Notes: generated from the sequence alone by a model not told the origin. DNA of 64,000 bases from Escherichia coli (GCF_002854065.1 NZ_CP024147.1); one strand, 5' to 3'. Positions 9,882-20,128 are shown, numbered from the stretch's first letter. A program made the numbers and translations.

Positions 9882-10171
9882 ATAAATCTCCATTTATCAT
9901 TTATGTCGTAAATATGTAATCCATGCAAAATACGTCATTTAAAGCTGGTGTTATCATAATTGGGAAATTGCGACTTTAATAAGTGGAAGTGTGAGCAGAA
10001 CGATCCATTTTATTAGGCATTTGTGCTGAAGAGGGAAAATTACGGCATATTTATTACTATCATCAATAATGTGACCTGACTTATATTTTTATTATTTATA
10101 TTACTTTCAGCTTTCACTTCGACAAGAAGTACGCACAATGATTAATTAGATGAATGATGCGGAGTGTAACC

Positions 10172-10879
10172 ATGAAACCCGTCGTGCTGGTGGTGGATGA
10201 TGACACGGCTATCTGCGCACTGTTGCAGGACGTGTTAAGTGAACATGTCTTTACGGTTTCAGTCTGCCATACCGGACAGGAGGCCATATTGCGTATTGAG
10301 GGCGATCCTGACATTGCGCTGGTGGTGCTGGATATGATGCTACCCGATACCAACGGCCTGAGGGTATTGCAGCAAATCCAGAAACTGCGTCCGACATTGC
10401 CGGTGGTGATGTTGACCGGCATGGGCAGTGAGTCTGATGTGGTGGTCGGGCTGGAAATGGGCGCGGATGATTACATCTGCAAACCGTTCACCCCGCGGGT
10501 GGTGGTCGCACGACTGAAAGCGGTGTTGCGACGGGTTGGTGCGCTGGCGGTTAATGACGAGAAAAGCGCCGGGCTGTCATTCAATGGCTGGTATCTCGAT
10601 ACCATGCGCTGCCAGTTGCACAATCCGCTTCAGCAACATGTCGAGTTAACTCAGGGCGAATATGGCTTGTTACTGGCTCTGGCGCAAAACGCGCGTCGGG
10701 TATTGAGCCGCGAGCAGTTGCTGGCGTTCACCCACAGCGACAGCGTGGAGGTGTTTGATCGCACCATCGACGTATTAATCATGCGCTTACGACGCAAAAT
10801 CGAACTCAACCCGCATCAGCCGATGTTGATTAAAACTCTGCGCGGTCTGGGGTATGTCTTCGCTGCCGACGTGCATTAA
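10172..10879 (+). CDS. OmpR/PhoB-family response regulator (receiver plus winged-helix)
   Basis: MKPVVLVVDDD...ALVVLDMMLPDTNG receiver motifs, C-terminal LRGLGYVF wing; GGAG 7 nt upstream of ATG at 10172 (track ORF begins at 10154). Confidence 0.85.
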   Translation: MKPVVLVVDDDTAICALLQDVLSEHVFTVSVCHTGQEAILRIEGDPDIALVVLDMMLPDTNGLRVLQQIQKLRPTLPVVMLTGMGSESDVVVGLEMGADDYICKPFTPRVVVARLKAVLRRVGALAVNDEKSAGLSFNGWYLDTMRCQLHNPLQQHVELTQGEYGLLLALAQNARRVLSREQLLAFTHSDSVEVFDRTIDVLIMRLRRKIELNPHQPMLIKTLRGLGYVFAADVH

Positions 10880-11877
10880 TCCGACATTTCTGTTTGCAGC
10901 TCTTCCAGCGTTTTCGCCCCGTCGATGGCATTGGCGCATAACAGGCTTGCCCGCGCGCAGGCGTGTGCCAGTTTGATGCTCTCGGTAAGCGTCCAGCGTT
11001 CATGGCAGCCATATAAAAATCCGGCACAAAATGCATCGCCCGCGCCGACGCTGCCGATAATTTCCCGTTGTTCTAACTTTTGCGAAGGGATCCACACGCC
11101 GCCCTGTTCTGGGGTCTCTCCCCACGCCCCTTCCGGGCAGTGGATCACCACCCGCTGGCGCACGCCCGCATCTAACAGTTCACGCGCGGCGGCAGCAATA
11201 TGCGCGATATGCGGTTCGCCGTTGGGTAACCGAATTTCCAGCCCGCTAAACTCCCCGGCCTCCAGTTCGTTAATTACCAGATAATCCAGATGGCGCAACG
11301 CGGGCAGCACCAGCGGCTGATAACGCGGATCGCCCTTACGGGAGACCAGGTCGAGTGAGGTTTCAAAGCCAGTATCACGCATTTGCGCCAGCAGGCGTGC
11401 GCTACGGGTGCCGTAAACATCGTCCGGCATATCCAGGCTGTCGAGCAACAGTAAATAGCCGAGATGGAAAATCTTCATGGTGTTATCGAGCTGATCGAAC
11501 GCCGGAAGATCCAAAAGTCTGTTTGCACCCGGCGAATGGAAAAACGTCCGCTGCCCGCTTGGGTCTGTCATCACCTGCGACATCGACGTCGGGGCAAAGG
11601 TAGTGCGCTGCACATGCTGACGATTGACGTGATATTGCTCAAGCATCGCCATGATGTAATCGCCGTCGCTGTCCTGACCGATTAGCCCAACCGCCTGTAA
11701 CGGTAGCCCGGTGCGCATTTTCGCCAGCGTCAGCAGGACGTTAAGCGGCGCACCGCCGGTGGAGCGTTCGCTGTGGGTGATCTCCGCCAGCCAGCCGCGC
11801 TCTGGCCACTGGATAATCTGATGGACGTGGTCAACCAACATATTGCCTGCGGCGATAATCCCTTTACGCTCCATCAT
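10876..11877 (-). CDS. PfkB-family carbohydrate (or sugar-phosphate) kinase
   Basis: C-terminal GAGDAFCAGFLYG, the PfkB/ribokinase signature 2; 333 aa. Confidence 0.8.
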   Translation of the reverse strand: MMERKGIIAAGNMLVDHVHQIIQWPERGWLAEITHSERSTGGAPLNVLLTLAKMRTGLPLQAVGLIGQDSDGDYIMAMLEQYHVNRQHVQRTTFAPTSMSQVMTDPSGQRTFFHSPGANRLLDLPAFDQLDNTMKIFHLGYLLLLDSLDMPDDVYGTRSARLLAQMRDTGFETSLDLVSRKGDPRYQPLVLPALRHLDYLVINELEAGEFSGLEIRLPNGEPHIAHIAAAARELLDAGVRQRVVIHCPEGAWGETPEQGGVWIPSQKLEQREIIGSVGAGDAFCAGFLYGCHERWTLTESIKLAHACARASLLCANAIDGAKTLEELQTEMSD

Positions 11878-12734
11878 GCCTGCCCCGCACTGCCAAAAAT
11901 ACGCATCTGTTGTGCAACCGTATCGCTGATGGCGGCTTCCACTGCCAGCAGTAACTCGGCAAACTCGTCATACATCGGCTGACGGTGCGCCATTCGGGCC
12001 TCAACGGCAGCCAGCGCCGCTTGCGACATGCCAGTGTAGAAATTGATTTTGTGGATACCCAGTTCGATGGCGCGGCGGAAATCGGCATCACTAATCCCTG
12101 AGCCGCCGTGTAATACCAGCGGGATAGCAGCCTGCTGGCGGATAGCGTCGAGGCGCGGGAAATCGAGTTTCGGTTCGCCGCGATATTTGCCGTGTGCATT
12201 GCCAATCGCCACGGCCAACGCGTCAATGCCGGTACGGTCGACAAAATCACGCGCCAGTTGCGGATCGGTAAACAGGGATTCATCGGCATGACCATAGAGC
12301 GCACCGCCTTCGTCGCCACCCACCGCGCCCAGTTCAGCTTCTACCGATACGCCAACGGCATGGCACATTTTCACCACTTCCCGCGTCTGGCGGACATTTT
12401 CTTCATACCCCAGCGTGGAGCCATCAAACATTACCGAGCTGAATCCCAGCCGCAACGCTTGCACCACCGATTCAAAATGCAGTCCGTGATCGAGATTTAA
12501 CACCACCGGAATGGCATGACGCGCCGCTTCAAATTTCACTGTCTCGACCAGGGAATCCAGCGAGATATATTTAAAATGTACTTCGGCAATGTTGATAATA
12601 AAGGGCGAACGTTCTTGTCTGGCAGCAGCAAACAAGGCGCGTAAAAAGTGCGAGTCCAGCACATTAAACGCACCTAACGAATAGTGATGTTCGCGGGCAT
12701 GTGCCAGCCCTTCAGCGAGAGAAATCAATGGCAT
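11874..12734 (-). CDS. Class II ketose-bisphosphate aldolase (GatY/KbaY/FbaA family)
   Basis: 286 aa; NLDHG, SVMFDGS, VEAELG, LAVAIGNAHG, LVLHGGSG blocks align with class II tagatose/fructose-bisphosphate aldolases as recalled. Confidence 0.8.
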   Translation of the reverse strand: MPLISLAEGLAHAREHHYSLGAFNVLDSHFLRALFAAARQERSPFIINIAEVHFKYISLDSLVETVKFEAARHAIPVVLNLDHGLHFESVVQALRLGFSSVMFDGSTLGYEENVRQTREVVKMCHAVGVSVEAELGAVGGDEGGALYGHADESLFTDPQLARDFVDRTGIDALAVAIGNAHGKYRGEPKLDFPRLDAIRQQAAIPLVLHGGSGISDADFRRAIELGIHKINFYTGMSQAALAAVEARMAHRQPMYDEFAELLLAVEAAISDTVAQQMRIFGSAGQA

Positions 12735-19315: not shown

Positions 19316-19397
19316 TTTTCAGAATTTATCAAGAGGCCTGAAGCAAATGTGCTGCTATTGTGAGCAATTCTGTTCTGAATGGGATATAAAAGGAATT

Positions 19398-20060
19398 ATG
19401 CCAGTACTGACAAGAGGCGATTCACATATGATCGTGATGCCCACCACCTATAGCCCTATGACGGTTGCTCGTTCTTTTCGCGTGGTGGAAGAGATCGAGC
19501 TTTCTGGACGTCTGTTACAGGTAATTTATGACAAGCAGACGCCAAGAGCGGCCATCATTGAAGCGGACATTGAAGTTTTTGCAGGCGTGCCACGTCATAG
19601 GGTACATGCCGCTCTCGATCTGCAGCGTAAAAAAGAGTTCGGCAGCGATATCATTGCCGTTGAACGCTGGTGGGAAGACTCGGATCTGGTACAGGTAGAA
19701 GGTATTTGTGTCTCTCCTGGTGAGCGCGATAAGGGGCTGGCAACTCGGCTGTATGAAGCGCTAATCCTGCAATGCGGTATCACGCTAATCAGCGATTTTG
19801 ATCAATATGATGGTGGGAAGATGCTCTGGCAGAAGATCGCGCGCGAGTCCGATCAGATTTCAGTGTTTGTATTAGACACTGAACAAGGGGCATTTTGGCC
19901 TTATGATGGCACGAAAGTGATCTACGATGGCGGTTGCATTCCGGAAGAGCGTATCTGGAGTATTTCACCGGATCAAAAATGTCATGGCATTGTGCTGGTG
20001 GCGGAAAATAAACAGCGAGCTAACCAGCTAATGGAAGAGTCTGCGCCTTACCGAGTTTGA
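19398..20060 (+). CDS. Hypothetical protein, possibly GNAT-like fold
   Basis: ORF with AAGGA 5 nt before ATG at 19398 (alternative ATG 19428); weak acyl-CoA N-acyltransferase-like motif ERDKGLATRLYEAL; not part of the K-12 gene order as I recall it. Confidence 0.5.
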   Translation: MPVLTRGDSHMIVMPTTYSPMTVARSFRVVEEIELSGRLLQVIYDKQTPRAAIIEADIEVFAGVPRHRVHAALDLQRKKEFGSDIIAVERWWEDSDLVQVEGICVSPGERDKGLATRLYEALILQCGITLISDFDQYDGGKMLWQKIARESDQISVFVLDTEQGAFWPYDGTKVIYDGGCIPEERIWSISPDQKCHGIVLVAENKQRANQLMEESAPYRV

Positions 20061-20128
20061 GATTACTCCGCTACTCCGGTCATTCACACTCAACTAACGT
20101 TAAGCCAGTCCATCGCAGAGACTGGCTT

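Follow-up and report, generated by a model that had tools for sequence, protein, structure and literature searches.

The 64-kb stretch of the Escherichia coli chromosome analyzed here (GCF_002854065.1, NZ_CP024147.1; hereafter, the window, whose coordinates are used throughout) carries, between yjcS and yjdP, a block of genes for a two-component system, a sugar transporter of the ATP-binding cassette (ABC) type and sugar-converting enzymes, which we identify with high confidence as O-island 167 (OI-167) of the O157:H7 strain EDL933, with the composition lmvR(rbfR)-lmuKAIZYX-lmvK(rbfS). The block is real but not new, its replacement of the als locus having already been published, and its occurrence here adds no new biology to a module that ties sugar sensing to virulence in O157:H7. 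The added value of the analysis is small and resides in a frameshift in lmuX, in an island form that is long and rare, and in evidence for a wide, syntenic distribution of the cassette among Enterobacteriaceae.

The assignment to OI-167 draws on gene content, order and sequence. EDL933 carries eight genes (Z5684-Z5692) in identical order between yjcS and yjdP; a gene-by-gene comparison with the window yielded nucleotide identities of 94.3-99.9%, and tblastn with the EDL933 proteins yielded 95-100% amino-acid identity at full coverage, with LmvR and LmuZ identical in protein sequence. The window reads, as expected for OI-167, response regulator (+), kinase, aldolase, isomerase, substrate-binding protein, permease and ATPase (all -), and histidine kinase (+), and no regulator gene besides the lmvR/lmvK pair was detected in the block among open reading frames (ORFs) or by family scans. 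These ORFs and scans returned the same genes as a preliminary description of the stretch, namely a regulator, kinase, aldolase, isomerase, transporter, hybrid kinase and hypothetical protein. Along with the chromosomal site and gene order, the operator is shared with OI-167; the window differs from it by an extra intact GNAT-like ORF, the lack of an Asn-Asp-Phe (NDF) duplication in LmvK, a diverged lmuI (11 substitutions) and the frameshifted lmuX. The features are, from left to right:

9894..10043, no strand: shared intergenic DNA upstream of yjcS, 97-100% identical to K-12, EDL933, O145 and CUWW06
10172-10879, plus strand: lmvR/rbfR (Z5684), OmpR/PhoB-family response regulator, 100% amino-acid identity to EDL933 WP_000805929.1
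10876-11877, minus strand: lmuK, divergent PfkB-family sugar kinase with weak NCBIfam matches to ribokinase, 1-phosphofructokinase and IolC, 99.7% amino-acid identity to EDL933
11874-12734, minus strand: lmuA, class II ketose-bisphosphate aldolase, NCBIfam NF005284 at 578 bits (cut-off 406)
12749-13432, minus strand: lmuI (Z5688), cupin D-lyxose/D-mannose isomerase, NF051472 at 439 bits (cut-off 350), PDB 3KMH/3MPB at E = 9e-154
13487-14428, minus strand: lmuZ, periplasmic sugar-binding protein of the RbsB/AlsB class, NCBIfam RbsB at 1e-43, protein 100% identical to EDL933
14447-15421, minus strand: lmuY, ABC permease, NCBIfam RbsC-type at 1.5e-80
15418-16937, minus strand: lmuX, ABC ATPase with two nucleotide-binding domains, frameshifted (ORF map, family scan)
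16986..17025, minus strand: lmuX promoter/operator, the invariant block of an 11-locus alignment
17051-19315, plus strand: lmvK/rbfS (Z5692), hybrid histidine kinase by Pfam domains, 98.5% amino-acid identity to EDL933
19428-20060, plus strand: GNAT-like ORF of 210 aa, weak Pfam Acetyltransf_1 match (E = 0.0017), outside EDL933 OI-167
20061..20152, no strand: diverged spacer and first yjdP codons, partly similar to the K-12 rpiB-yjdP spacer

By the ORF map, family scans and comparison with K-12, the block spans ~10044 to ~20150, at a site where K-12 MG1655 has the order yjcS, alsK-alsE-alsC-alsA-alsB, alsR, rpiB, yjdP, phnP, so that the K-12-like flanks and the replacement of als/rpiB by a different interior, as previously described, are borne out by direct comparison with MG1655. 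The island itself stands, while its start had been placed at 9894; since identity with K-12 stops only at 10043/10044, 150 bp past the yjcS start codon, that placement takes in 150 bp of shared intergenic DNA. The right junction is fuzzy, with a diverged but alignable spacer and yjdP signal-peptide codons at 20057-20152 and a return to near-identity at ~20153. In agreement with the preliminary description, the junctions are free of mobility determinants: the ORF map holds no integrase or transposase ORF at the block, a tRNA search found none at the junctions, and flanking direct or inverted repeats amount to short matches at chance level. The G+C content of the block (0.47-0.60) is unremarkable, and in simple scans for promoters and terminators the island did not exceed shuffled sequence in number of sites.

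The als/rpiB locus of K-12 resembles the island in occupying the yjcS-yjdP interval and in combining an RbsABC-class transporter with a sugar kinase. The likeness ends there: als has an RpiR-family repressor, an epimerase and RpiB, whereas the island has a two-component system, an isomerase and an aldolase, in a different gene order; K-12 AlsA and AlsC are only ~38-40% identical to the ATPase and permease orthologues in related loci; and the window island gave against the als operon a single blastn match, of 122 bp and 74% identity in the ATPase gene, i.e., it is not a form of als. We also considered and rejected als and the island as diverged alleles of one operon, on account of their different gene order, regulator type and enzymes and of one locus (L012, described below) that has the two next to each other.

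The function of the system has been approached by two groups. Liu et al. (2022, PNAS, PMC9860305) named Z5692/Z5684 RbfS/RbfR and placed them in OI-167; they reported that riboflavin raised RbfS autophosphorylation, that RbfS transfers phosphate to RbfR in vitro and that RbfR binds the ler promoter, the pair activating ler. For Yang et al. (2023, mBio, PMC10128022) this pair is lmvK/lmvR and the six intervening genes are lmuKAIZYX; they also described the replacement of the als locus. In their hands, growth on D-lyxose needs lmvR, lmvK, lmuI and lmuZYX, LmuK has fructokinase activity, lmvR and the operon are induced by mannose and lyxose, and LmvR autoregulates and also activates the locus of enterocyte effacement (LEE). 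Both lines of work are summed up in a review of 2024 (PMC11644481). The earlier view of the substrate, the signal and the regulatory logic as not established is outdated, because the RbfS/RbfR and LmvK/LmvR studies (PMC9860305, PMC10128022) had been published; the island genes are homologous to a characterized pathway, an outcome that the preliminary description had itself named as speaking against its view.

According to these reports, with which the window sequence is consistent, the module works as follows. The membrane hybrid kinase LmvK/RbfS responds to D-mannose or D-lyxose (or to riboflavin, according to Liu et al.), and this signal leads to phosphorylation of LmvR/RbfR, which binds ATATGA-N3-ATATGA, centered ~50 bp ahead of the transcription start of lmuX, and activates the six-gene operon as well as its own gene. 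LmuXYZ import the aldose, the isomerase LmuI converts mannose to fructose and lyxose to xylulose, and LmuK phosphorylates the resulting ketose; in LEE-positive strains LmvR in addition activates ler. LmuA would presumably then cleave the ketose phosphate. Several points weigh against this scheme. The genes lmuK and lmuA are dispensable on lyxose, the operon barely adds to growth on mannose, and the Michaelis constant (Km) of LmuI for mannose is high, 19.8 mM (all PMC10128022), because of which the physiological substrate may be another sugar. The two papers disagree on the signal (riboflavin vs. mannose), on the ler binding site and on the need for a histidine phosphotransfer (HPt) protein. 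The window, for its part, gives no sign of the system's expression, and the LmuX transport step may not work in this strain owing to the frameshift in lmuX. A mannose-type substrate is supported by the ~60% identity of LmuXYZ to the mannose ABC transporter HSERO_RS03635-45 of Herbaspirillum seropedicae (PMC10128022), which, unlike the island, has no linked two-component system and no isomerase/aldolase/kinase set.

The 113-bp intergenic region between lmuX and lmvK (16938-17050) holds an LmvR box, ATATGA-CAA-ATATGA, at 17024 to 17010 on the minus strand (TCATAT-TTG-TCATAT at 17010-17024 on the plus strand), equal to the published ATATGA-N3-ATATGA, which lies within the DNase I footprint of LmvR at -62 to -41 of the lmuX promoter (PMC10128022). 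The box belongs to a block of ~40 bp (16986-17025) that is invariant, between diverged flanks, in an alignment of 11 loci (E. coli, two Citrobacter, two Enterobacter, Leclercia, Pseudescherichia, RIT691, a soil metagenome-assembled genome (MAG), Serratia plymuthica and Acerihabitans arboris), and that stood out in the alignment independently of the published box. Inside this block lies a -35-like CTGACA (17002 to 16997, minus strand); taking the published footprint as a ruler, we infer an lmuX transcription start near 16966 with TGTGAT at 16979 to 16974 as its putative -10 element. The distance from the block to the lmuX start is constant, whereas that to the lmvK start ranges from 35 to ~190 bp through palindromic elements inserted in RIT691 and Leclercia. 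These elements have the form CCCTCTCCC...GGGAGAGGG and lie between the LmvR box and the lmvK start, at ~9860-9960 of L006 and ~9900-9960 of L010, the RIT691 and Leclercia loci; a similar palindromic element occurs in the window after yjdP (20460-20553), where the window differs from K-12.

Upstream of lmvR, at ~95 bp (10073-10079), an ATGTGAC motif is conserved in all genera examined; it fits the published autoregulation and is too short for proof. The published ler-promoter footprint of RbfR, TCTCACATAATTTATATCATT, had no match in the window with up to three mismatches allowed, and no LEE lies within the 64 kb. An ATGTGA core common to that footprint and to the motif upstream of lmvR was rejected as evidence, being too short.

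The constancy of this architecture bears on whether the two-component system is chiefly a riboflavin sensor with the sugar genes as unrelated passengers, as might be supposed from the enhanced autophosphorylation of RbfS in vitro and the 9-fold induction of rbfR by riboflavin (PMC9860305). We consider this very improbable, given that lmuX is the strongest target of LmvR, with a 694-fold change, a chromatin immunoprecipitation (ChIP) peak and a footprint (PMC10128022), and that the kinase, regulator, isomerase and ABC genes are linked in every locus (only the sugar kinase and aldolase genes are missing, from Acerihabitans), with the operator invariant and at a fixed distance from lmuX.

Turning to the proteins of the two-component system, the best NCBIfam matches of LmvR are OmpR, then VirG. 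LmvK shows the order transmembrane segment, periplasmic domain of predicted helical bimodular fold, transmembrane segment, HAMP, HisKA (His407), HATPase and receiver (Asp689), and the phospho-acceptors are all present: LmvK His407 and Asp689, corresponding to EDL933 His410 and Asp692 (the window protein is 3 residues shorter upstream), and LmvR Asp54. Pfam detected in LmvK only HAMP, HisKA, HATPase_c and Response_reg, with no HPt domain, and the protein ends 5 residues after the receiver. Its NCBIfam matches are VirA-like, CckA and TorS, the VirA-like family being among the best matches over the full core. VirA likewise has a C-terminal receiver and no HPt domain, whereas TorS has an HPt domain. 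A separate HPt protein has been proposed (PMC10128022), and direct transfer has been observed in vitro (PMC9860305); in view of the VirA-like layout, direct transfer from His407 to LmvR Asp54, by analogy with VirA/VirG, is probably the simpler reading, and the receiver of LmvK, with no HPt domain to follow it, would act as a modulator.

The sensor domain of LmvK had no match among PDB sequences by phmmer. AlphaFold2 modelling of residues 1-372 from an alignment of 26 sequences (mean predicted local distance difference test score, pLDDT, of 85) gave an all-helical periplasmic domain, for which Foldseek returned the sensor domains of PilJ, TorS and McpS as the best PDB folds (probability 1.0, E ~1e-3), with TM-scores of up to 0.71 on the target (TorS 3I9Y) and of 0.36-0.46 on the query; a domain of the TorS/McpS type is accordingly only predicted. 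The helical bimodular class includes both direct ligand binders (McpS) and a reader of a binding protein (TorS-TorT), and therefore leaves the mode of sensing undecided. LmvK/LmuZ/LmvR resemble TorS/TorT/TorR and VirA/ChvE/VirG in combining a hybrid kinase, an OmpR-family partner and a neighboring RbsB-class binding protein, so that LmvK might read sugar-loaded LmuZ as TorS reads TorT and VirA reads ChvE. Such a contact between LmuZ and LmvK is an analogy, and we regard it as distinctly unlikely. It would suit the modelled fold, with TorS 3I9Y and the TorS-TorT complexes 3O1H/3O1I among the best matches, as well as the VirA-like kinase core, the VirG-like regulator and the higher conservation across genera of LmuZ (87-97%) than of the kinase (62-82%). 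It agrees poorly with the direct binding of small ligands by McpS and PilJ, which share the fold, with Foldseek E-values of only ~1e-3, with the finding that deletion of lmuKAIZYX did not reproduce the colonization defect of lmvK/lmvR mutants (PMC10128022), and with the response of purified RbfS to riboflavin without any binding protein (PMC9860305).

Compared with the window, LmvK of EDL933 has an additional NDF near codon 219, in the sensor domain, due to a 9-bp tandem duplication. Because the shorter lmvK, of 754 codons, is shared by the window, CUWW06 and O145:H28 RM12581, the allele studied experimentally is the variant one. The closest match to the sensor region, the 870-aa protein P0001 (61% identical), has a PAS_7 domain between HAMP and HisKA and an N-terminus close to that of the Serratia plymuthica locus; PAS_7 was either lost from or never present in the 754-aa kinase type of E. 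coli, Citrobacter, Leclercia and Pseudescherichia. Longer kinase orthologues, of the type found in Serratia, Acerihabitans and Enterobacter sp. Bisph1, were noted in comparison with window positions 18150-18230.

Among the enzymes, LmuI is the cupin D-lyxose isomerase of solved structure that the preliminary description had noted for an enterohaemorrhagic E. coli (EHEC) locus: 3KMH/3MPB were deposited under the name 'D-lyxose isomerase', and identity between the LmuI proteins of the window and EDL933 is 95%. Its gene, at 94.3% nucleotide identity to EDL933 and with 11 amino-acid changes, is a mosaic allele; the genes to its left (lmvR, lmuK, lmuA) are 99.4-99.9% and those to its right 97.3-99.0% identical in nucleotides, and this drop of identity at lmuI relative to either side marks it as a recombination patch. 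The PDB relatives of LmuA include class II fructose-bisphosphate aldolase (FBA), KbaY, YdjI and AgaY, and no PDB chain matched the lmuK product at E<1e-10. The pairing of a PfkB kinase with a class II FBA-family aldolase recalls YdjH/YdjI of K-12, YdjI (6OFU) being among the structural relatives of LmuA; the substrates of YdjI are long acid sugars in the form of ketose 1-phosphates.

In lmuX, comparison with the closest complete genome, CUWW06 (4 differences from the window in 10.9 kb), revealed a 1-bp deletion at ~15691 (15685-15695; GGCCC to GGCC on the coding strand), which had escaped the preliminary description. The shift sets in directly ahead of the second Walker B motif (LLLDEPT), the ORF runs only as far as 15618, and the ATGA start-stop overlap between lmuX and lmuY is also broken; an intact lmuX of 1521 bp is present in all listed relatives. 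An intact LmuXYZ, needed for growth on lyxose, is not encoded in the window as it stands, or else the base is a possible sequencing error; unless it is, the frameshift has probably crippled uptake in this strain. One may go further and regard the island here as a decaying remnant, in which the frameshift abolishes uptake and is polar on lmuYZ-I-A-K, a possibility that in our estimation falls somewhat short of an even chance. The deletion does remove the second Walker B, D-loop and H-loop of LmuX and breaks the overlap with lmuY, and CUWW06 has pseudogenes in the neighboring phn operon. Nevertheless, every other gene of the island is intact and differs little from its functional EDL933 allele, lmuX is intact in the nearest genomes, and a single base in a run of three C could be a sequencing or assembly error.

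Presence and absence of the block, which the preliminary description had suggested mapping, were scored across 5426 complete E. coli genomes, with carriage defined by coverage of at least 80% of the query. The als-rpiB region was found in 3367 genomes (62%) and the island in 410 (7.6%). Genomes with any als/rpiB match (4994) and those with any island match (421) add up to 5415 of the 5426, counts which imply that island carriers have no als/rpiB remnant. Another ~1,630 genomes match only a small part of als-rpiB, which in the listed examples is the last 188 bases of rpiB; O26:H11 FWSEC0001 has lost everything from alsK to the 5' end of rpiB and retains 318 bp of rpiB, so that the third state in most remaining genomes is probably a deletion, as judged from this single inspected genome. 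Island carriers are mostly O157:H7 and O145:H28, and an evenly spaced sample of carriers also contained isolates from pig, human, in-house environment, baboon, guinea fowl, pigeon and wastewater, with chromosomes of 4.6-5.2 Mb; we estimate such isolates at roughly one fifth of carriers. Those from pig, human, baboon, guinea fowl, pigeon and wastewater, together with carriers from goat, have no EHEC label. Nucleotide divergence among E. coli carriers is 0.1-5.7%, like that of yjcS, phnP and phnO.

Outside E. coli, a scan with LmvK over one genome per species identified full-length orthologues (62-82% identity) in 11 loci. In all of these the regulator, isomerase, transporter and hybrid kinase genes follow the E. 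coli order, Acerihabitans being without the sugar kinase and aldolase genes; the order of all eight genes is kept in loci of Citrobacter, Enterobacter, Leclercia, Pseudescherichia, RIT691, MAG CTSoil_132 and Serratia. Cross-genus identity is 86-97% for LmuZ and LmuY vs. 62-82% for LmvK and LmvR, LmuZ having the highest conservation of all cassette proteins (87-97% across genera; 95-97% in Citrobacter, Enterobacter and Leclercia). The chromosomal setting is also shared. On the left-hand side, fdhF is present in Citrobacter sp. FP75, C. werkmanii, Pseudescherichia, Leclercia, Enterobacter sp. Bisph1, RIT691 and MAG CTSoil_132, and both fdhF and phnP flank it in six loci (the two Citrobacter, Leclercia, Enterobacter sp. 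Bisph1, RIT691 and MAG CTSoil_132); two Pseudescherichia loci have fdhF only and an Enterobacter MAG has phnP only, while yjdP precedes phnP in the two Citrobacter. The equivalent fdhF-phn interval exists in E. coli, with mdtPON-ytcA-yjcS added on the left. Between E. coli and Citrobacter, the cassette proteins are 78-97% identical in amino acids, a range that brackets the values of phnP/phnO (~80%) and fdhF (92%).

Because six non-E. coli loci have the cassette in the fdhF-phn interval with an invariant operator, it would appear, as far as comparative sequence data can tell, to be a long-standing syntenic resident that few E. coli lineages have retained, and not a recent, EHEC-only import. 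Both experimental papers hold otherwise, presenting the block as a foreign, EHEC-specific virulence island, recently acquired by horizontal transfer; on this view its main job would be LEE control. In their surveys by PCR and BLAST, EHEC and O55:H7 alone had the system (PMC9860305, PMC10128022), the 410 carriers seen here are dominated by O157:H7 and O145:H28, and lmvK and lmvR, not the lmu operon, matter in mouse colonization (PMC10128022). We nevertheless consider the foreign-island explanation unlikely, albeit not negligible: there are the carriers from animals, wastewater and humans that are not labelled EHEC; the full cassette with its invariant operator occurs in loci of Citrobacter, Enterobacter, Leclercia, Pseudescherichia and Serratia, and six loci have it in the fdhF-phn interval; divergence both within E. 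coli and to Citrobacter resembles that of flanking core genes; and the block has no mobility genes or repeats.

The relation of the cassette to als can be glimpsed in MAG CTSoil_132 (L012, 3009-19429), where fdhF, the lmv/lmu cassette, alsK-E-C-A-B-R-rpiB and phnP stand in tandem, the lmvK stop lying within ~20 bp of the 3' end of a convergent alsK match. This is the sole case seen and may be a mis-assembly of the MAG, and it lends weak support to a tandem ancestor. A tentative scenario, to which we give somewhat better prospects than to recent import while holding it short of probable, is that the cassette was ancestral in the fdhF-phn interval and once in tandem with als-rpiB, that the three states in E. 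coli arose by differential loss and flank recombination, and that LEE control was a late co-option; mannose and lyxose being poor substrates, the true substrate may be another sugar, sensed by LmvK either directly through its TorS/McpS-like domain or via LmuZ. The 'allelic replacement by flank recombination' of the preliminary description holds as to replacement at the als site, and its mechanism is plausible, although old residence between fdhF and phn with differential loss fits the synteny at least as well.

Overall, the comparative data correct the published statements in two respects: (i) the system is not confined to EHEC and O55:H7, and (ii) the cassette does not look like a foreign island. 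In the six other enterobacterial loci, sugar catabolism is the only plausible job of the cassette. This bears on the 'acquisition of rbfSR' as a step in O157:H7 evolution and on risk statements about other serotypes 'acquiring' the system.

The GNAT-like ORF downstream of lmvK distinguishes the island form of the window. It had no match in NCBIfam, and it is labelled N-acetyltransferase by PGAP in CUWW06. Full-length copies are present in 5 of the 5426 genomes, and about half of the query region is covered in 28, mostly O145:H28; in O145:H28 RM12581 the ORF is an N-terminally truncated pseudogene. It is absent in O157:H7 and in PT62, and the remaining island carriers among the 5426 genomes gave no match. 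Given an orthologue (83% amino-acid identity) located after lmvK in an Enterobacter MAG, the window has the longest form of the island, which is probably also the oldest.

A few further observations concern individual carriers. The pigeon isolate PT62 (L084) is a divergent carrier (~96% nucleotide identity), which lacks the genes from phnP to phnC, has yjdN immediately after phnO, and carries an insertion sequence, IS1, just left of yjcS. Both phnF (27907-28641) and phnD (29538-30554) are intact in the window; CUWW06 has an internal stop in phnF and a frameshift in phnD, so that the window stems from a close relative of CUWW06 and not from that assembly itself. The pheU site of CUWW06 holds an integrase remnant only. 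Elsewhere in that genome (L087, 37700-49100), an apparent IS1-associated rearrangement near dnaA and uhpT/mdtL has a copy of IS1B on either side, and the interval between yieH and phoU holds a gene for a 704-aa 'type III effector protein'.

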